From positions 1 through 59,504 of IMG/VR virus record IMGVR_UViG_3300050021_000174: a stretch of 59,504 nt of DNA. The stretch is one strand, 5' to 3'. The DNA comes from a virus (Duplodnaviria; Caudoviricetes). Positions 9,848 to 59,377 of the stretch are shown piece by piece. The first letter of the stretch is position 1; every line of letters starts with the position of its first letter. The notes below the pieces were generated by a model. The model had not been told where the DNA came from and searched no databases. It saw only the letters and a program-made list of their open reading frames with translations. The position numbers were made by a program, and so were the translations under genes.

Positions 9848-11002
9848 CTAAAGCAGACGGCTTCTTGGGACACTCGGAGCAACCTCCAAGTTAAGTCCCA
9901 CAGGCTTAGTCCAAGCCTGAACACCACGAGCAAGAATATTTCTTGCAGCGTTGTGATCTCGGTTTAACACAAGTCCACAGTGAGGACAGTTGTGAATACG
10001 AACAGACAAAGATTTTTCGACAATTTGCCCACAAGAGGAGCAGATTTGACTTGTGTTTTTAGGGTTTACACCTATCACAGTGACACCAGCACTTTCAGCC
10101 TTGTGTCTCAGGATGCTCTGGAACGATGCCCAAGCAACGTCAGAGATCGAACGGGCGAGTCTACGGTTCTTGACCATACCTTTGATGTTCAAGCTTTCCA
10201 TAGCAATCATCCCGTATCGACGGATCAATTCATTAGAAGTTTTGAAGTGAAACTCTCTGCGAACATTCTTTACTTTAGCGTGAAGCTTTTGAACTTTCTT
10301 AATAGCCTTGCGCCCATTACTTCCAAGCTTCTTTTTTCTAGAAAGGCTACGTTGTCGCCTTCGCAATTCAGGAAGCTCAGCCTTGAGGAATCGTGGATTA
10401 GCGACATGCTCACCATTACTAGTGACAAGGAAAGAGTTAAGCCCAACATCAATACCAATCGAAGGATTAACAGAGGGAGCAATAACAACATCTCCCAGGT
10501 CACAAGAGACAATCAAATACCACTTTCCAGCTTCTCGCTTCAAGGAAAGAGTTTTGATCGTGCCCTCGACTGGACGATGCAAACAGACTCGGATTATTCC
10601 AACGTGTTGAACTCTCAATCTATTAGCAGTCAGGCGAATTCCATCACCGTGAGAGGGAAACTCAACAGAATCAAAGAAGTCCCTTCCTTTGAATCGTGGG
10701 TATCCAGGTTTGTCCCCTGTCTTGATACGACGAAAGAAAGCCTGGAAGGATTTGTCCAGTCTTCTCATAGTAGCTTGAGCAGAAGAGAAGTTAATTCTAG
10801 CAAAATAGTCGTTAGTAGTCCTTTCAGCCTTGAACCAAACAGACTGCTCAGTGTATTTGATCGACTTCTTTTCCAGTTCGTAAGCATCTTTCTTTTGAGC
10901 AAGGCAGGCATTATACAGGCGTCTGTGAGTCTCAAGCATTATCCCAAGCTCACGCTCCTGATTTTTGTTAGTCCAAAGCCTGTATTTGAAAGCCTTTCTC
11001 AC
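9848..11002 (-). CDS. tnpB: RNA-guided endonuclease TnpB
   Basis: KAFKYRL N-terminus, RuvC GIDVG / MESL / RDHNAA, Zn ribbon CSSCG...CPHCG. Confidence 0.95.
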   Translation of the reverse strand: MRKAFKYRLWTNKNQERELGIMLETHRRLYNACLAQKKDAYELEKKSIKYTEQSVWFKAERTTNDYFARINFSSAQATMRRLDKSFQAFFRRIKTGDKPGYPRFKGRDFFDSVEFPSHGDGIRLTANRLRVQHVGIIRVCLHRPVEGTIKTLSLKREAGKWYLIVSCDLGDVVIAPSVNPSIGIDVGLNSFLVTSNGEHVANPRFLKAELPELRRRQRSLSRKKKLGSNGRKAIKKVQKLHAKVKNVRREFHFKTSNELIRRYGMIAMESLNIKGMVKNRRLARSISDVAWASFQSILRHKAESAGVTVIGVNPKNTSQICSSCGQIVEKSLSVRIHNCPHCGLVLNRDHNAARNILARGVQAWTKPVGLNLEVAPSVPRSRLL

Positions 11003-11104
11003 TTACTTTCCCTTTTGTGCCTCTATGTATTTTCTAATCGTATATTCGGAAACGTGTCCAACAGACCCGGCATAATAAGACCTAGACCAAAGTGTCGGAA
11101 GTTT
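11003..11104 (-). pseudogene. tnpA: C-terminal remnant of an IS200-type Y1 transposase
   Basis: KLPTLWSRSYYAGSVGHVSEYTIRKYIEAQKGK*, aligning with LWSPSYYVGTAGHVSADTIKKYIE of the intact TnpA at 23595. Confidence 0.85.
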
Positions 11105-12863
11105 ACCACCCTCCCCGCATAAGCCTATAGTCCTCTTTCCCGGCTCTGCGCCAATCACCCATGTTGGTAATTGCTTTTGAATTATCTAAGTCAACCTCGA
11201 AACTTCTGACAAGACCGTTTGCATTAAACTTTGGATTTCGGGACAATTTCACTTTCTCCAAATAGGCCATAACGTATGGGGAAAAACCGGGCCGCAGGAT
11301 AAGATTTAGAGAAACGTAAAGTCGTGATTTCTCTTTTGTTGCCTCACCGCCCTTACCTAAAGGCTCACCCTTCTTTTTCTGCAACGCTACAACGCAAATC
11401 CCGGAACCTACCTTCTCGTGAATACTCTTCAGAATATCTCCTATAGCGTAAAAATCCTTGTGGATGTCGATGAAATCAATCACGGTAGCTTGGTCTGCCA
11501 AGATGTGATGGTGGTAGTTCTTCTCCACTCTACCAAAATCCACTCGGTTCCAAAGGTCTGTATCCATCCAACTCCCATAAGACAGAAGCCGTCCATCAAG
11601 TTCCGCGTCGCTCATTTCGCTGTTTATGTACCTGATTCGATGGGTCCGAAGATTGAGGCGACAGAACTCCAGCATGAACCACGTTTTAGCGGCGTTCCCG
11701 TCCCCGGCCACGACAATGAGATTACCCGGCTGGATTTTAACAAACTCACTGAGTCCCAGGGGGAGAGTGCAGCGATATTCACTGTCTTTGCTCTGGAAGA
11801 GTTTTTGCGGTGTAAACTGGGTGTCTATTCTTTGATACGTGCCAGATTTAGTTCCGATCCGTTCAATGACATTTTCTTTTAGTAATCGAGACAATATATT
11901 GCGAGTGTTTTTAGTATCTTTAAATCGCAAGTCCCGTGCCACATCAGTATAGTGGAACACGCCATCTGTAATATCTAACCATTTCCGTATCTTATCGGAG
12001 TCAGACAGCTCAGGCCGGACTAAGTTTGTATCATAGTTTGTATCAAGTTTGTATCGGTTTGTATCACCCTCCGCAGATGTACCGTTTGTACCGTTTGTAT
12101 CGTTTGTATCATTTGTATCAGACGGACCCGGCCCATATCTTTTCCAAGCCTGATCTACTTTTGATAGTGCTAGCCGCTCGGAAAATCGTGGTGTACAGTT
12201 CGCCGCCGCGTGGCAAACCAAAAGCTCAGCCTCGGCCTTCGATACGTCTCTTCTGCGTAGTAGGCAGGCATACTTAAAGAGTTTTTCGTCCCGCTCCCCC
12301 TCTCCTACACCCGCCAAAATGGACAGGGGGTCCAACTTCGTAGGGCCATCGTTATCCAAGGGTACCATTGAATAGAGGTTTAAAATCCACCTTGGGGGGT
12401 CCACAATAGAACTGTCAGGGCCGAGTTTGTAGGTTCCTCCGGTTTCAGGGTGAATGCTTCCTGGGGCTACGACTTGACCCCCTACTCCGCGAATATCAAA
12501 TCCTAATTCTTTAAATGCCTTGTTGCCGTATACTTTCTCTTTGGGGTAGCGGTAGAGAAAATGAAATTTTCCACTTCCCGTTTCGTGATACCGGGTTGCA
12601 GGGCAAGTCCAATGGCGCTTAATGCAAGTCTTTTCAAACAGCTCCGGATCGTCAACATCGAGAACGAGTACGCCGCTAGTAGGTCCGCAGGCTATCCCGG
12701 CATTGTCTCCCTCTTGGAAATCTATCTCTTCAAAAGATCGGCGCTTATGGCAATACTGTTGCCACTCTTTTTCCAACGGGACTTTGCCCTTAACCCTAAT
12801 AAGACTATATTCCTCTGACAACTGCCGAAACAGTTCCATGTCAGATTTACCCTCCTCCTGCAT
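11103..12863 (-). CDS. Bifunctional primase-polymerase + PriCT + wHTH + RecA-type helicase-like domain
   Basis: NAGIACG...LVLDVDD, TGSGKFHFLY, DIRGVGGQVVAPGSIHP, PriCT EGERDEKLFKYAC; P-loop GDGNAAKT, Walker B VIDFID. Confidence 0.9.
   Translation of the reverse strand: MQEEGKSDMELFRQLSEEYSLIRVKGKVPLEKEWQQYCHKRRSFEEIDFQEGDNAGIACGPTSGVLVLDVDDPELFEKTCIKRHWTCPATRYHETGSGKFHFLYRYPKEKVYGNKAFKELGFDIRGVGGQVVAPGSIHPETGGTYKLGPDSSIVDPPRWILNLYSMVPLDNDGPTKLDPLSILAGVGEGERDEKLFKYACLLRRRDVSKAEAELLVCHAAANCTPRFSERLALSKVDQAWKRYGPGPSDTNDTNDTNGTNGTSAEGDTNRYKLDTNYDTNLVRPELSDSDKIRKWLDITDGVFHYTDVARDLRFKDTKNTRNILSRLLKENVIERIGTKSGTYQRIDTQFTPQKLFQSKDSEYRCTLPLGLSEFVKIQPGNLIVVAGDGNAAKTWFMLEFCRLNLRTHRIRYINSEMSDAELDGRLLSYGSWMDTDLWNRVDFGRVEKNYHHHILADQATVIDFIDIHKDFYAIGDILKSIHEKVGSGICVVALQKKKGEPLGKGGEATKEKSRLYVSLNLILRPGFSPYVMAYLEKVKLSRNPKFNANGLVRSFEVDLDNSKAITNMGDWRRAGKEDYRLMRGGW
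12024..12120. repeat. 9-bp TTTGTA(T/C)C(A/G) direct repeats, candidate replication iterons
   Basis: About nine imperfect copies inside the primase gene, encoding DTN/GTN. Confidence 0.7.
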
Positions 12864-22071: not shown

Positions 22072-22515
22072 ATGGGATTAGATTGTAGTCATAATGCGTT
22101 TCATGGTGCTTATTCAGCGTTTAACCGTTTCAGGCAAGCGGTTTGCTTTGCTCTTGGTGGTAGCTTCCCGCCGCACTGGAAACACAATCCCGACTTTTCG
22201 ATTACGAAAGGTCCGAATGATGAGTTTACCTATGACCGGACTTTAGACGAGGGCGTGATTTATTTTGGACGATATTTAGATGAAGATTCCGGCTTAGCCA
22301 TTTTTCTGAAGCACTCCGACTGCGATGGAGAGATTTCACCCGAAGATTGCACAAAGGTGGCGGACGAATTGGAATCTCTTTTGCCCGAGATTGAGAAGTA
22401 TGGAATGGGAGGCGGACATATTTCCGCGCGCGGTGGATATGCCGACGTAGCCCGAAAGTTTATAGGCGGGTGCCGTGAGGCCGCTAAGTCCAACGAGCCG
22501 CTGATTTTTGCTTAG
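22072..22515 (+). CDS. Hypothetical phage protein
   Basis: MGLDCSHNAFHGAYSAFNRFRQ...FLKHSDCDGEISPEDC. Confidence 0.65.
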   Translation: MGLDCSHNAFHGAYSAFNRFRQAVCFALGGSFPPHWKHNPDFSITKGPNDEFTYDRTLDEGVIYFGRYLDEDSGLAIFLKHSDCDGEISPEDCTKVADELESLLPEIEKYGMGGGHISARGGYADVARKFIGGCREAAKSNEPLIFA

Positions 22516-22544
22516 CGCCCCGCCCCGATAGCGAGGGAGAGTGA

Positions 22545-22736
22545 ATGGAACATTGGAACATTGGCGATAAAGTGTGCCTTCCTGGATGCCAGCGTGAAGC
22601 ACCGGAAACGGTAATCGCTCGCGATAGATTCGGCCGGGTTGAGATAGAGTGGGCGGATGGGAGCGGCAGTTATCATCTGGACCAAGAGCTTGTCGAGCCT
22701 GAGTTGAACGGCGAAATGCCGAGGCAGTTGACCTGA
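22545..22736 (+). CDS. Small hypothetical protein (SH3-like)
   Basis: WNIGDKV...VEIEWADG; GAGGGAG RBS. Confidence 0.45.
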   Translation: MEHWNIGDKVCLPGCQREAPETVIARDRFGRVEIEWADGSGSYHLDQELVEPELNGEMPRQLT

Positions 22737-22772
22737 GATGCAAAAACTTCTGACCCCTGAGCATAAATAGAA

Positions 22773-22985
22773 ATGAATAGATGGTTGTCGATGCCAGGCG
22801 CGTGTGAGTACGCCGATATGTCACGCAAGACTATGCGGCGCCTAATTGCTGACGGACTGATTGCTGCCGACAGGATAGGCGCAAGCTCGCGCGGTCACTG
22901 GCGCATAGACCGGGAAAGCATCGACAGTTATTTTGGCAGGACTGAGCAAAAAATACTTGCGAAAATACGGGGTCTTCGGCAATGA
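22773..22985 (+). CDS. xis: Excisionase-type HTH protein
   Basis: WLSMPGACEYADMSRKTMRRLIADGLIAA...WRIDRESIDSY, directly upstream of the integrase. Confidence 0.8.
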   Translation: MNRWLSMPGACEYADMSRKTMRRLIADGLIAADRIGASSRGHWRIDRESIDSYFGRTEQKILAKIRGLRQ

Positions 22986-23508
22986 TTCTGTGCATGAGAC
23001 TCGGGAAGCGCAAAAAATACGGAACTTATTTTATCGAGTTTGATTCCGGAAAACGCCTATCCCTTCAGACTCAGGATGAGCGAGAGGCCAAGCGTCTTTA
23101 TAATGTCTACCGGGCCGAATGGCTTGCGGGGAAGCTCGAACATATCACCGGAGCTTGTTCTAAAACACTTGCGGATTACGCGGAAGAATATCTGAAATGG
23201 GCCGTTGAGGTCCAACCTCACTCGACCTATAGGGCAAACAAACTGGCACTGGATAAACTGAAGCATTTCGCAGGAGAGAAGATCGCTCTGGACCGGATTG
23301 GGATTAAACACATCGACGATATGTGCGCTACGCTCAAGAAACTATCGCCAAACTCGGTCAACAACTACATCCGGCACGCGAGAGTCGTTCTTAATAAGGC
23401 CGTAGATTGGGGATATCTCAAGAGTAACCCGCTATCCAAGGTGAAGCAGGTCAAAGTTGAGAAGCGCCCTCCTGCATTTCTGGACAAGCAACAAGCGGCG
23501 ATATTCAT
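22982..23508 (+). pseudogene. int: Tyrosine integrase, arm-binding and core-binding domains only; interrupted by an IS, catalytic domain absent
   Basis: RLSLQTQDEREAKR...LSPNSVNNYIRHARVVLNKAVDWGYLKSNP...FLDKQQ; rejoining across the IS adds only VDLVLKCLDLN*. Confidence 0.85.
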
Positions 23509-23558
23509 AAAACCTCCGCAAGGAAACCCCTGATTGAAATCAGGGGAGGAATTGCGGC

Positions 23559-23587
23559 TTGACACGCCGCATCACATGGTATACTAT
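23559..23587 (+). promoter_or_regulatory. IS-borne promoter for tnpA
   Basis: TTGACA-N17-TACTAT. Confidence 0.6.
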
Positions 23588-23594
23588 GTGAGGT

Positions 23595-24008
23595 ATGGAA
23601 AACGTTACTACAAACAGAAATTGTGTGTATCAGACTGCTTACCATCTTGTGTGGTGTCCGAAGTACCGGCACGACATTTTGACTGGTGAAGTGGCTAAAG
23701 CACTTGAAGAACTTTTGGATCAAGTTTGCTCCGAAAGAAAGTGGACTATACTGGCACGAGAAGTTCAGCCTGACCACATCCACTTGTTTTTGAGCATTCC
23801 GCCTTCGGTTGCCGTTTCCGATGCTGTGAAAATCCTCAAAGGTACTACGGGTAGACGGCTGTTTGTTCGCTTCCCTGTTCTTAAGAAACGGTTGTGGGGA
23901 GGGCATCTTTGGTCGCCGTCTTACTATGTCGGAACGGCGGGACATGTGAGTGCAGACACTATTAAGAAGTACATTGAACGCTCCGAGCATGTAACGAAGA
24001 GAAGGTAA
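23595..24008 (+). CDS. tnpA: IS200-type HUH (Y1) transposase
   Basis: YHLVWCPKYR, PDHIHLF (HUH), LKG, LWSPSYY, catalytic helix KKYIE. Confidence 0.95.
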   Translation: MENVTTNRNCVYQTAYHLVWCPKYRHDILTGEVAKALEELLDQVCSERKWTILAREVQPDHIHLFLSIPPSVAVSDAVKILKGTTGRRLFVRFPVLKKRLWGGHLWSPSYYVGTAGHVSADTIKKYIERSEHVTKRR

Positions 24009-24011
24009 AAT

Positions 24012-24863
24012 ATGGGAGTTCCCAACAAGATCAATAAAGATAATTTGCAATTGGCTTTGAATGCTTACCAATCTGGACAATCGCTGCTTTCCTCCGGGAA
24101 TATTATTGGCGTTAGTGGGGCGGCACTTCGTCAGTATTGCATAAAGCACGGAATAGCACGGAGAACACGAAGTGCATCTATGCGAAAATTGAAAGTTAAC
24201 GAACACTTTTTTGAACAAATCATTAATGAACCCTCTGCATATTGGCTTGGGTTTATTCTTGCCGACGGAACGATTTTTAATGATTCCCTGACTCTTGCTC
24301 TGCATATCAAAGACTCTAATCATTTGGAGAAATTTAAAGAATCTATCGGTGCAGATCATCTTATTAAACATTATCATTATTCCAACCAAACCAGTCGTTG
24401 CCAAATTTCGATACGACGGCATGAGATTGTAAACGATTTGGCTAACCTGGGAATATATCGCAACAAGAGTCTTACTGTTAAGCCTCCGGTTGAACAAATC
24501 CCATTGTCTCTTGTCCATCATTTTTGGAGAGGGGTAATAGACGGAGATGGAAGTATTTGTTTTTTGAAAAAACGCCCTCATAATTCGCACATTTCTCTTG
24601 TGGGTTCTGAATATGTTTGTAATGCCTTCTCTGTTTGGGTCAAAACTTTAGATATAGATAGTCCTGTAGTGAAGCAACATAAAAGCATTTTTGAAGTTAA
24701 AGTATTTGGTAGAATTCGGTGCCGTGTTGTACTTTCTGCTTTATACAAAGATGCCACTCTCTTTCTAAATCGAAAATTTAACGCAAGTCACAATCTTGCT
24801 CGGATTGGTTGCTCTATCGAGCTTCCAAGGGGTGAAGTAGACCACCCTGATGTTGCCGCCTAG
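24012..24863 (+). CDS. HTH + double-motif LAGLIDADG homing endonuclease with a TnpB-like C-terminal tail
   Basis: AYWLGFILADG and HFWRGVIDGDGSI motifs; YKDATLFLNRK end of the LAGLIDADG, then NASHNLARIG. Confidence 0.85.
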   Translation: MGVPNKINKDNLQLALNAYQSGQSLLSSGNIIGVSGAALRQYCIKHGIARRTRSASMRKLKVNEHFFEQIINEPSAYWLGFILADGTIFNDSLTLALHIKDSNHLEKFKESIGADHLIKHYHYSNQTSRCQISIRRHEIVNDLANLGIYRNKSLTVKPPVEQIPLSLVHHFWRGVIDGDGSICFLKKRPHNSHISLVGSEYVCNAFSVWVKTLDIDSPVVKQHKSIFEVKVFGRIRCRVVLSALYKDATLFLNRKFNASHNLARIGCSIELPRGEVDHPDVAA

Positions 24864-24934
24864 CAGCGGACAATAAAGCCTCTGACTTCAGTCAGGGGTT
24901 GTTTACAGTGGACCTCGTGTTGAAATGTTTGGAT

Positions 24935-26209
24935 CTAAATTAAAATTTCGCCCGGTGGCCTCTCATCATATGGAGGTTTTAGCGCAATTAAATCAGCTTG
25001 GCATATTAGTATCTTGTGGGTTTCTTCAAAAGAAGTGGGATAGTAGTTTACTATCCTACTAATTTGAAACCGGCCTTTATACTTGGGCCGTATAAATCTA
25101 GCCCAATTCTCATTTGTATAGTACCAAAGTGAATTACTATTCCAGCGGCTAACGTGAGTCGGGTCTTGAAACGCGCCGCGTCCATCTGTACTCGGCACTT
25201 CTATTAACAGCCAACCGCCGGGTGCAAGAACTCTGTACGCCTCACCCATCGTAAAAATCGGGTCTTTCAGGTGCTCGAAGATATGATACGCCTTAATCAC
25301 GCCAACTGAACCGTCAGCAAACGGCCACCTTTTGTTCAGGTCGCACTTCACGTCCGCGTCGAACTTGTCAACGGTCGTAAATCCCGGCCATGCGTTGAAC
25401 CGTCCGCCGAGGTCGAGTAGCCTGAGCTTGTTGTCTTTGGCCCATCGTATAGCCATGTCCCGGCTGTACTTGAGATAGTTTTGGTCTGTGAGATATTGAA
25501 CTTCGGCATTGTCGGTCACGCTGGTGTTGCTGGGGTGGCGTCGATATAAATATAGGCATTCGTCTATGTGCCTGATTCCCGCAGCCCCGTATGTAATAAA
25601 AAAGCGACAGTTTAAATCGTGGTCATCAGCGGTAGGCATCGTCTCGTCATGTCCGCCAAGGTTGAAGTAGCTGGAAGTTCTAAAACAGCGCACATGATTG
25701 GGGGACCACTCTACCCTTCGGAAAGAATGAGGCGAAGGCGAAAACGCAACCATTTCTTTTAGCTGGTGTCCCTCGAATTCAAAAGCACGAGACTGCCATC
25801 CATAGTCCGAACTGTAAACAAATGGCTCCCAAGTCCGGTCTATGAACTCCGCTGAGTTGCTGTACGCCATGTGAACATCGGAGTCCGCGAAGGATTCAGC
25901 CACCCGATCCAAGGCATTGACCGTGAGCATGTCGTCTGCATCCAACTCGACTAGGACTTCGCCTGTGGCTTCGAGCGCCAAAGTCTTTTTCAATCTCCCT
26001 ATCTTGTTCCGTCCTCCGGCGAGTTCGTCGGGAATGTCTATCACCCTTACCCGGTCGTCTCCTCGAATGTATCCAGGAACCGACCCGCCGTTGTTTACCC
26101 CGATGAGCCATTCCCAATCGGCGTAGGTCTGCTCTTGGAGTTTACGGTAAGCGTCCCGTAAATACGGGGAAGAAGATTTATGGACCGGCGTGAAGACTGA
26201 CAGTTCCAA
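24935..26209 (-). CDS. GT2 glycosyltransferase fused to a class I SAM-dependent methyltransferase-like domain
   Basis: LSVFTPVH, ELDADD (DxD), DDHDL, LYLYRRH; LDLGG, DLNKRWPF, FEHL, YRVLAPGG, QDPTH. Confidence 0.9.
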   Translation of the reverse strand: MELSVFTPVHKSSSPYLRDAYRKLQEQTYADWEWLIGVNNGGSVPGYIRGDDRVRVIDIPDELAGGRNKIGRLKKTLALEATGEVLVELDADDMLTVNALDRVAESFADSDVHMAYSNSAEFIDRTWEPFVYSSDYGWQSRAFEFEGHQLKEMVAFSPSPHSFRRVEWSPNHVRCFRTSSYFNLGGHDETMPTADDHDLNCRFFITYGAAGIRHIDECLYLYRRHPSNTSVTDNAEVQYLTDQNYLKYSRDMAIRWAKDNKLRLLDLGGRFNAWPGFTTVDKFDADVKCDLNKRWPFADGSVGVIKAYHIFEHLKDPIFTMGEAYRVLAPGGWLLIEVPSTDGRGAFQDPTHVSRWNSNSLWYYTNENWARFIRPKYKGRFQISRIVNYYPTSFEETHKILICQADLIALKPPYDERPPGEILI

Positions 26210-52026: not shown

Positions 52027-52081
52027 TTCATAAAACCTCCGCAAGGAAACCCCTGATTTCAATCAGGGGAGGAATTGCGGC

Positions 52082-52110
52082 TTGACACGCCGCTGTTTTA
52101 AATCTATAAT
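52082..52110 (+). promoter_or_regulatory. Consensus sigma70 promoter for tnpB
   Basis: TTGACA-N17-TATAAT. Confidence 0.8.
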
Positions 52111-52135
52111 CCTTCAAACAAAAGAAGGATATGCC

Positions 52136-53269
52136 TTGAAACTGATTGCCCAAGTGAAACTTCAGACTACGCCAGAGCAACACAAAGCCCTGATGGATAC
52201 GATTCTGCGTTCGAACGAATGTGCCAATGCGTTGTCTTCTTGGGCTTGGGAATCGCAAACCTTTCGACAATACGATCTTCACAAGGCAAAATATTTTGAA
52301 CTGAAAGAACAGTTTGGCCTTGGTGCTCAAGTGACAATCCGGTGCATTTCCAAGGTTTCCGATTCGTACAAGAAAGACAAGAAAACGAAACGAGTTTTCA
52401 AAGACACCGGCTCCATCGCTTTCGACAGCCGAATCCTTTCTTGGAAGATGAAAGATCAGTCTGTCAATATCTGGACTCTTGTGGGCAGGCTTCGAGTTCC
52501 TTTTCTCGCAGGGAAAAAACAACTTGAACTTCTCGAACACAGGAGAGGTGAAGCCGACCTTGTGCTTTCCAAAGGAATTTTCTATCTGCTTCAGGTCTGC
52601 GAAATTCCGGAACTGCCTGAGTTTGAACCAAAAGGTTTCTTGGGGGTCGACCTCGGAATCGTTAGTCTTGCCACCACTTCGGATGGAGATACTTTCTCCG
52701 GTGAAGCGACGGACAAAGTCCGAGAGAAAGCAACCGAACTTAAAAGAGCACTTCAAAGCCGTGGCGGAAAGTCTTCGAAACGCCACCTTAAAAAGTTTTC
52801 CGGTAAAGAGGCAAGATTCAAGAAGAACACGAACCACGTAATCAGCAAGAAAATCGTTTTTTTGGCTAAAGACACCTGCCGGGCAATCGTAATTGAAGAC
52901 CTGAAAGGCTTCAACGGCAGGACAACGGTTTCCAAGGCGCAAAGAGAACGGTTCGGGAGGTGGAGCTTCGGGCAGCTCAGAGGATATATCGAATACAAAG
53001 CCAAACGGGAGGGTGTGCCTGTAATTGCGGTCAATCCCCGCAATACGAGTCGAACCTGTTCCGTGTGTGGTTTTGTATCTAAGAAAAATAGAAAGTCTCA
53101 AGCCCTATTCTCCTGTACGAAATGCGGGTTTACAACCCATGCGGACTTAAACGCCGCAATCAATCTTAGTTTTAAGGGCAACCCTGTCAATTTGCCCATC
53201 GCAGTCCACGCTGATTCTCAACTACTCCCGTTCTTGGAACTGCAAGCCTCTGACTTCAGTCAGGGGTAA
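52136..53269 (+). CDS. tnpB: RNA-guided endonuclease TnpB
   Basis: RuvC GVDLG / IEDL / HADLNAA, Zn ribbon CSVCG...CTKCG; TTG start after AAGGA. Confidence 0.95.
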   Translation: MKLIAQVKLQTTPEQHKALMDTILRSNECANALSSWAWESQTFRQYDLHKAKYFELKEQFGLGAQVTIRCISKVSDSYKKDKKTKRVFKDTGSIAFDSRILSWKMKDQSVNIWTLVGRLRVPFLAGKKQLELLEHRRGEADLVLSKGIFYLLQVCEIPELPEFEPKGFLGVDLGIVSLATTSDGDTFSGEATDKVREKATELKRALQSRGGKSSKRHLKKFSGKEARFKKNTNHVISKKIVFLAKDTCRAIVIEDLKGFNGRTTVSKAQRERFGRWSFGQLRGYIEYKAKREGVPVIAVNPRNTSRTCSVCGFVSKKNRKSQALFSCTKCGFTTHADLNAAINLSFKGNPVNLPIAVHADSQLLPFLELQASDFSQG

Positions 53270-53301
53270 TTGACGGTCATGCTACGCGCTTACTATTCAA
53301 C

Positions 53302-59331: not shown

Positions 59332-59377
59332 GAAATCTGGAACTGCAAGCCTCTGACTTAAGTCAGGGGTAGTTGAC
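59332..59377 (+). mobile_element. 46-bp single-hairpin relic of the same IS200/IS605 family
   Basis: TTCAT|GAAATCTGGAACTGCAAG-CCTCTGACTTAAGTCAGGGG-TAGTTGAC; matches the RE at ~53235-53274 with two differences. Confidence 0.8.

Follow-up and report, generated by a model that had tools for sequence, protein, structure and literature searches.

What becomes of an IS200/IS605 transposon when the slot normally taken by tnpB is occupied by a gene for a protein-guided nuclease? The question is raised by positions 23509–24906 of the Caudoviricetes record IMGVR_UViG_3300050021_000174, which is complete at 59,504 bp with both ends overlapping by 127 bp, and all of which was analysed (referred to here as the window). 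TnpB, together with its omega RNA, is considered to be a homing device belonging to the transposon itself and the forerunner of Cas12, and an initial annotation made from the DNA alone had proposed that in this element, hereafter element A, a LAGLIDADG homing endonuclease has replaced TnpB while the TnpB tail and omega-RNA region were kept. We find that element A is a recently formed and still transposable IS200/IS605 derivative, located after TTCAT, in which a free-standing homing-endonuclease gene has taken the place of tnpB. The remaining tnpB codons provide the endonuclease with the end of its (predicted) final helix and a stop codon, and the left end (LE), tnpA, the 3' module and the right end (RE) are all intact.

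All parts of element A are on the + strand. The target pentanucleotide TTCAT, which resembles a transposon-associated motif (TAM), is found directly 5' of the element at 23504–23508; it also precedes a sister element in the window (element B; 52027–52031) and a copy of element A with another left flank in a contig from sequencing run X5, and none follows the RE, so that insertion is 3' of a fixed TTCAT without duplication. The LE (23509–23570) has a subterminal hairpin at 23527–23546, and the 67 nt formed by TTCAT and the 62-nt LE (23504–23570) are 97% identical to 52027–52093 of element B. A promoter-like TTGACA-17-TACTAT at 23559–23587 (a consensus match only, with the -35-like TTGACA at 23559–23564) is followed by an intact tnpA (23595–24008) encoding a 137-aa Y1 (HUH) transposase with HIH and SYYVG motifs (Pfam Y1_Tnp, E 7.6e-43; NCBIfam transpos_IS200, E 4.4e-47). 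The endonuclease open reading frame (ORF; 24012–24863, 283 codons) begins 3 nt past the tnpA stop and is made up of two parts: a foreign cassette (24010–24779, start codon at 24012) with helix-turn-helix (HTH) and double-LAGLIDADG coding sequence up to an invariant Arg-Lys-x, and the part of the former tnpB beyond RuvC-III, its final 27 codons with the stop, retained in frame as the endonuclease C-terminus (24780–24863). The same junction opens the omega-RNA-like module (24780–24906), a covarying 127-nt tail with four conserved stem-loops of which the last is the RE hairpin (24877–24900). The right end at 24906 is fixed by contigs from runs X4 and X5, and the adjoining flank (24907–24922) is predicted, by its position alone, to be in the guide position of a read-through omega RNA.

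The hairpins at both ends are subterminal and imperfect and there are no terminal inverted repeats, and by its TnpA, ends and target element A belongs to IS200/IS605; each feature named in the initial annotation, including the spacing of the ORF from the tnpA stop, was found where it had been placed. It falls outside the IS605-type/OMEGA subgroup, whose members have an intact TnpB with RuvC-I, II and III and a zinc finger. Element A encodes no TnpB, as all three RuvC catalytic motifs are gone and just 27 post-RuvC-III residues are left, and Pfam gave no OrfB_IS605 or TNB match in the endonuclease ORF at E up to 0.01.

The protein now encoded in the tnpB slot can be assigned firmly to the LAGLIDADG homing endonucleases by its motifs and modelled fold, from which DNA cleavage is predicted. 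We note that it does not reach the Pfam gathering threshold for LAGLIDADG_3 (E 0.0048, 17.6 bits against a cut-off of 22.5), which is passed by its relatives at loci L058, L108, L020 and L086 (24–28 bits). There are 502 homologues among 902 candidates, many with PF14528, and in a 26-sequence alignment the motifs YWLGFILADG (including D85) and WRGVIDGDG (including D179) are in invariant columns, as is an Arg-Lys pair near the C-terminus; the window protein retains all 21 invariant family columns, including both acidic motif residues. The AlphaFold model of the 283-aa protein, built with this alignment (predicted local distance difference test score, pLDDT, 89.8), has an N-terminal three-helix bundle (HTH) followed by a two-lobed core, in which two helices each carry a conserved acidic residue within the pseudo-symmetric alpha-beta-beta-alpha-beta-beta-alpha fold. 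All the Foldseek matches listed for this model are solved LAGLIDADG proteins (143 chains at E <= 0.001; top match 2dch, E 5.2e-9), mostly homing endonucleases such as I-Tsp061I, the TliVMA intein endonuclease, I-AniI, I-OnuI and I-SceI, together with bI3 maturase and WhiA. The homologues, invariant motifs and predicted fold therefore agree on the HTH and double-LAGLIDADG protein that had been proposed, despite the sub-threshold Pfam score. The GC content of the ORF (0.355–0.415, against about 0.5 in the flanks) can be added to this description, and a search of viral contigs with the endonuclease found two loci, neither with insertion sequence genes by tblastn. The HTH of the model and the matches to WhiA and bI3 maturase could also be taken to indicate a nuclease-dead derivative acting as a DNA-binding regulator or maturase-like factor of element A, a reading we consider very improbable given that D85, D179 and all of the invariant columns are kept.

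The origin of the C-terminal tail was established by a search using residues 240–283 alone, which retained a single one of 6 candidates, the 369-aa protein P0121 (PF01385 and PF07282 domains, and an NCBIfam guided_TnpB match at 2.5e-53). The last 27 residues of the window endonuclease are identical to the C-terminus of P0121 at 26 of 27 positions, and it is on account of this near-identity, and not of any motif, that we take the tail (NASHNLARIG...DVAA) to be TnpB-derived, beyond a mere likeness to TnpB. The initial annotation had argued from the resemblance of the tail to the TnpB post-RuvC-III motif; the origin it proposed is confirmed by P0121, and the argument itself proved insufficient, since the native tail of the endonuclease family (RKxxxAxx[IL][IL]) superficially resembles the same motif. 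The nearest of the 120 window-centred homologues listed end in native RKxxxA... tails, and a simple regular expression for the TnpB motif matched just two of the 120 (P0003 and P0009), so that the nearest relatives of the window protein do not bear such a tail and it cannot be regarded as common to free-standing homologues. It should also be noted that the native C-terminal helix of the family (RK-x-N/E-x-A-x-x-I/L-L) is patterned like the TnpB RuvC-III helix (x-N-A-A-x-N-I-L), which is either a coincidence or the trace of an old association.

A canonical relative with the order tnpA, tnpB and RE (L176) is carried by plasmid NZ_AP024719.1 of Methylomarinovum tepidoasis. Over 137 aa the L176 TnpA has 73.7% identity to that of the window, and the L176 tnpB begins directly after the tnpA stop and is 62% identical to P0121. 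It has the same RE as the window (...GGGTTGTTTAC), with compensatory changes in the hairpin. DNA similarity between the plasmid and the window runs from exactly the Asn codon at 24780 through 24906, with the bases before 24780 being unrelated, and this fixes the 3' breakpoint. At the 5' side, a contig from run X5 tracks the end of tnpA (23980–24009) and then continues into codons for MLKTVSLKLK, the N-terminus of P0121, which places the breakpoint at 24009|24010, inside the tnpB start codon. Thus tnpB was replaced from inside its start codon to the codon before the Asn (24780) that follows the RuvC-III Asp. The X5 contig is direct evidence for the proposed replacement of TnpB by the endonuclease, and it means that the parental tnpA–tnpB form coexists with the tnpA–endonuclease form in this run. 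No relatives of P0121 were found in viral contigs, and the DNA of element A gave a single match among GenBank phages, 65.8% identical and covering part of tnpA.

The sequence downstream of the junction has been conserved as structure. An alignment of three sequences (the last 147 nt of the element in the window, the Methylomarinovum element and the viral mini-element L177) folds into four stem-loops, with 97.1% of paired cells able to pair compared to 39–50% when the partners are slid by 1–3 columns, and with 13 of 34 pairs altered on both sides compared to 0–3 when slid; these values were not reached in any of 500 shuffles, though with just three sequences and a structure derived from those same three, the statistics are good and not conclusive. 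The window stretch folded alone has a z-score of -3.05. R1, a covariance model made from the three-sequence alignment, finds the 3' end of element B at full length (53130–53274; 37.8 bits, E 2.6e-10), a 77% relative of element B (L169), and three further mini-elements at 45–60 bits. No Rfam family was found in the whole window at gathering thresholds. Approximately 20 nt of the module upstream of the junction have been replaced in element A. From IS608, TnpA should need just the last hairpin, and the conservation of the remaining stems fits an omega-RNA scaffold, from which an orphan guide RNA is predicted. The four covarying stems and the R1 matches lend support to the claim that the omega-RNA region was kept.

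Mini-elements with this same structured 3' module were also seen in other viral contigs (L177–L180 and L171), where they consist of the LE, the last ~100–170 nt of tnpB and the RE, without a protein gene; in L177 (9560–9813), for example, the tnpB part measures ~170 nt. These may give guide RNAs without a nuclease.

The mobility of element A was assessed using public sequencing runs, twenty of which contain part of the stretch, with peat metagenome being the label of most. Contigs, rather than reads, from four of these (X1, X3, X4 and X5) were compared with 22500–25900, a type of data that cannot judge rare variants or excision products; X3, X4 and X5 are from other studies, while X1 may be the source sample. 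The X1 contigs agree with the window throughout, including one that spans 23541–25900 without a difference. X3, X4 and X5 cover 23504–24906 with 0–4 mismatches per piece and have zero depth on both phage flanks, which we read solely as flanks not found in these contigs, and the contigs of the other runs cease matching at 23504 and 24906. An X4 contig covers 23637–24906 with one difference and then continues for 163 nt into unrelated sequence, an X5 contig covers 24791–24906 before entering a third, different right flank, and another X5 contig has a different left flank up to TTCAT. Three right-flank contexts (window, X4 and X5) are therefore known from contigs, and the presence of the element in other metagenomes without the phage flanks and with new right flanks after 24906 means that element A is mobile, recent and not a one-off. 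This answers the question of whether the tnpA and LAGLIDADG unit occurs at a second site.

There was likewise no sign of the misassembly that might have produced such a unit. A joining of the tnpA of one element to an unrelated endonuclease gene during assembly might be suspected, as contigs break at the 67-nt LE repeat common to element B, and it is solely through this repeat that the left phage flank is joined to element A in the contigs. Such an error is refuted, since both junctions are spanned in contigs of independent runs: the X1 and X4 contigs (23541–25900 and 23637–24906) described above, and X5 pieces (23907–24009 and 23980–24283) which cross the tnpA–endonuclease junction. We give this explanation almost no credence. 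A 557-nt X4 contig which starts in an RE hairpin and ends in TTCAT and the start of the LE was also observed, along with a 557-nt X3 contig with the same LE end, and these suggest that in a different genome two members of the family are separated by ~500 nt.

In the phage itself, element A has disrupted a gene (22982–23533, +) for the N-terminal SAM-like domain of a phage integrase (Pfam Phage_int_SAM_5, E 8.7e-11), whose reading frame enters the LE. The interrupted gene codes for the SAM-like N-terminal domain alone, and we rejected the suggestion that the integrase resumes to the right of element A: the frame stops 12 codons beyond the notional excision, and Pfam found no PF00589 integrase catalytic domain anywhere in the complete phage record. 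On this evidence the right flank seen now probably did not at first adjoin the integrase gene, owing either to a deletion beside element A or to a phage without a working integrase.

Element B (52032–53274, +) is a tnpB-only sister of element A (ORF 52082–53269, probable TTG start at 52136; Pfam OrfB_IS605 and Cas12f1-like_TNB). The two have in common TTCAT, the 62-nt LE and the 24-nt RE hairpin, and their flanks diverge exactly at these borders. Copies of element B which are 99.5% identical are found in the viral contigs L172 and L173, with the 77% identical relative in L169; in L172 the homology ends exactly at the element B ends, beyond which the flank is different, and from this we conclude that they are real transposon ends. 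As element B is without its own tnpA, it needs a TnpA like that of element A in trans. An orphan B-type right end (59340–59377, +; hairpin and ...AGTTGAC, with TTCAT before it and the hairpin at 59349–59370 matched by R1) stops precisely at the start of the 127-bp overlap between the two ends of the record, and the assembly therefore probably broke at this repeat.

Why, then, would a transposon carry such an enzyme? One possibility is that it is a functional substitute for TnpB, a protein-guided nuclease that retains the transposon by cutting the vacated donor or a preferred site so that the element is copied back. The endonuclease does fill the tnpB slot of the tnpA operon, and TnpB acts as a homing endonuclease on vacant sites according to the available portion of one report (10.1101/2023.11.20.567912). 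However, LAGLIDADG enzymes are described in the available part of another (PMC13565253) as recognising 14–40 bp sites, that is, one long fixed sequence each, and with element A in at least three unrelated flanks the endonuclease cannot recognise each vacant site. We therefore think it unlikely that the endonuclease performs this role.

A different answer is suggested by the recurrence of endonuclease–tnpB junctions elsewhere, which the initial annotation had not foreseen for other lineages. We collected 162 loci coding for relatives of this endonuclease, 2 of them viral and 80 each from species-representative genomes and metagenomes. Discounting 5 duplicates leaves 157 distinct loci, at which tnpB and tnpA remnants were sought by tblastn, a small TnpB hidden Markov model and inspection. 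In 15 of the 157, tnpB- or tnpA-derived sequence directly abuts the endonuclease, and three patterns of insertion can be seen. In the first, the invariant RK is followed by one residue and then N[AG][AS]xN[ILV] in frame, as found in the window and in four of 158 other loci (L020, L086, L108 and L157); when the motif is allowed anywhere within 240 nt of the anchor, 6 of the 159 loci have it, the window being one of these, compared to 2 and 1 for two control regions. In its DNA, the L086 tail has 81% identity with the 3' end of a genuine tnpB from its own genome, and aligning the endonuclease RK with the R-D of that TnpB places the junction right after the catalytic (RuvC-III) Asp codon. L108 has a TnpB N-terminus (MVTVQKAYKFRIYPDAEQ...) directly upstream of the endonuclease and the tail downstream; a tblastn search of plasmids with its 54-aa tail gave no match at E <= 1, the query being too short for that database, and the support for this tail comes from the N-terminus ahead of the endonuclease. 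In L058 (Salinivenus iranica), tnpA is followed by a 92-aa TnpB N-terminal fragment (matching an annotated TnpB by tblastn at E 7e-9) and by the endonuclease, after which come GAANIRRK, a tail that is out of frame, and an RE hairpin. Neither N-terminal fragment (25 aa in L108 and 92 aa in L058) was recognised by Pfam, nor was that of L058 by NCBIfam. The tail and RE of L020 have no second copy in its own genome, so that this locus is identified by its motif and an RE-like hairpin only.

In the second pattern, insertion is after ...FPWMYEV near TnpB residue 62, with the remaining tnpB following in L089 and L097; L088 and L095 have lost part of it. As a separate observation, the C-terminal tail of the endonuclease ORF in this lineage (e.g. 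LMYEVMNTPIQ) has the look of the TnpB segment found where the cassette inserted, copied and since diverged. In the third pattern, insertion is inside the TnpB tail, with an intact tnpB ahead in L033 and L034 and the tnpB body deleted in L135. The tail in which these cassettes sit (L033 3400–4400, L034 3400–4450 and L135 1–1250) is also the omega-RNA coding region, and a cassette there would split the omega RNA yet spare the protein.

A profile was also made from five cores of the first pattern, hereafter pattern (i), truncated at RK so that no tail columns were included; 31,178 representative proteins match it at E <= 0.001. Among the 150 best of these the RK anchor was present in 144, and in 15 of the 144 the motif came exactly one residue later, followed by long, mutually different TnpB-type tails, with ~5 further near-variants; this suggests that the fixed junction is common rather than a curiosity. 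In a FastTree phylogeny of 159 cores, the pattern (i) proteins other than that of the window cluster near each other, and the window protein is found elsewhere, nearest to P0001 which has a native tail. As the tail label needs three changes on this tree, the TnpB-tail fusion is likely to have had at least two origins.

These junctions are most readily understood if the endonuclease is a selfish invader that targets tnpB, which from the sequence comparisons is the likeliest interpretation, and we regard the combined explanation, covering both the anatomy of element A and a mechanism of this kind, as the best available and probable, with appreciable room for error. In this mechanism, TnpA would move element A as single-stranded DNA to sites 3' of TTCAT, which is consistent with the different flank contexts, and would also serve element B in trans. 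The endonuclease would be translated from the tnpA transcript starting at the LE promoter and would cut tnpB genes that are free of it, within or close to the conserved RuvC-III codons. Repair templated by a copy that carries the endonuclease, with tnpA and the LE providing homology on the left and the tail and RE on the right, would then delete the tnpB body and convert tnpA–tnpB elements into tnpA–endonuclease elements. The endonuclease would be a hyperparasite of the transposon's own nuclease gene, and the retained omega-RNA module would work only with TnpB supplied in trans. The combination of variable 5' junctions and a fixed 3' junction fits such cutting and repair, and homing endonucleases habitually sit in conserved catalytic-site codons, a habit which also fits the targeting of tnpB.

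The main rival for the fixed junction is a filter for foldable proteins. Element A would then be an accidental recombinant in which the endonuclease gene entered tnpB by illegitimate recombination and rides as a passenger with TnpA, with the recurrent junction reflecting selection for a fusion that folds and for retention of the RE, rather than cleavage of tnpB. The native RKxxxAxx[IL][IL] does match the periodicity of xNAAxNIL, and in our model residues 253–267 form a single helix that is continuous over the fusion junction (pLDDT 96 for residues 251–260, with 268–283 disordered). The 5' junctions vary (the start codon, codon ~24 and codon ~92), and deletion derivatives without an endonuclease keep the same 3' module. 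Selection alone would, however, leave unexplained both the frequency with which these enzymes meet tnpB (15 of 157 loci and 15 of 144 representatives) and the presence of other lineages of the family at two further fixed positions in tnpB, and we consider the passenger explanation unlikely, though deserving of more weight than a substitute for TnpB.

Several points nevertheless count against an endonuclease that homes into tnpB. The evidence for targeting is the comparative pattern of junctions, from which we infer it. The tnpB body is missing in all four of the informative loci with the same junction (window, L108, L058 and L020), and a simple insertion with an intact 5' tnpB at the RuvC-III junction was not seen among these. 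Structural selection could account for the fixed junction, as maybe this fusion point alone folds. The same phage has two intact tnpB genes, which are either not targets or are spared by a weak enzyme. The 15 tail-bearing representatives are known as proteins alone, without genomic contexts, and the FastTree phylogeny is weak, as many of its branches are long and 78 of the 156 internal ones lack support. Finally, it should be remembered that the evidence from the runs is of contigs and not reads, with X1 possibly being the source itself.

More broadly, a large HTH-LAGLIDADG lineage might consist of dedicated IS200/IS605 hyperparasites homing into the RuvC-III codons of tnpB, with other lineages homing into two further conserved tnpB sites. 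These would remove the RNA-guided nuclease but spare the omega-RNA module and RE, resulting in widespread and unrecognised TnpA- or trans-mobilised elements with a protein-guided nuclease and an orphan guide RNA, which may borrow TnpB from intact copies. We advance this generalisation tentatively, and judge its chances to be slightly short of even. Whatever the mechanism, element A is a natural swap of an RNA-guided for a protein-guided nuclease whose parental form survives in the same kind of community, and the contribution of TnpB to its transposon could readily be tested by comparing the two. Should the endonuclease indeed target tnpB, it would be a selfish element preying on the nuclease gene of another, and would represent a new source of TnpB loss, orphan omega RNAs and non-autonomous IS605 derivatives, as well as a family of natural meganucleases with a known conserved coding motif as the likely target.

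Other genes in the window include a third, unrelated tnpB (9848–11002, -; OrfB_IS605, TNB and HTH) which adjoins a primase-polymerase gene (11103–12863, -), and at the 3' end of which R1 has a weak match (12.1 bits, E 0.058). An N6/N4 DNA methylase with an inserted HTH is found at 1355–2614, and a fused glycosyltransferase-2 and methyltransferase gene (24935–26209, -) is directly to the right of element A.

A full-text literature search for LAGLIDADG or homing endonucleases together with TnpB or IS200/IS605 did not find this architecture described (supplements and subscription-only papers were outside its scope, and a prior description is possible). In the available portions of PMC13565253, PMC4853749 and 10.1101/2023.11.20.567912, LAGLIDADG is mentioned just in general accounts of homing endonucleases, introns and inteins. 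In common with canonical tnpA- and tnpB-bearing IS200/IS605 elements (IS608/ISDra2 type; L176 is the nearest of known sequence), element A has a Y1 TnpA, 3' insertion at a short target, subterminal hairpins without terminal inverted repeats, the same RE and the structured 3' module; it differs in that tnpB codons 1 to ~342 have been replaced by the LAGLIDADG gene, leaving it without its own RNA-guided nuclease. The endonuclease agrees with the free-standing HTH-LAGLIDADG endonucleases of phages and bacteria (PF14528-type, e.g. Bacillus phage vB_BsuM-Goe21 P0085) in the order of its domains, in its two motifs and in having the conserved RK close to the C-terminus, but unlike these it is located between IS200/IS605 ends in a tnpA operon and has had its native C-terminal helix swapped for a TnpB-derived one. 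The mini-elements L177–L180 and L171 resemble palindrome-associated transposable element (PATE)- or miniature inverted-repeat transposable element (MITE)-like deletion derivatives of IS200/IS605 in keeping the LE, 3' module and RE without tnpB, whereas element A retains tnpA and has gained a new protein gene. IStrons, which combine a group I intron with IS200/IS605 or IS607, are likewise chimeras of a homing-type selfish element and the IS605 family that touch the tnpB/omega-RNA end, as set out in the available part of 10.1101/2023.11.20.567912; in contrast, element A has no ribozyme (no Rfam match), its partner is a protein endonuclease, and the tnpB kept in IStrons has been lost. Finally, the recurrent insertion at the RuvC-III motif codons, with an ORF in frame with the host gene, is reminiscent of homing endonuclease genes and inteins in catalytic-site codons, except that here the host gene is that of a transposon nuclease, whose upstream body has been deleted and is not restored by splicing.

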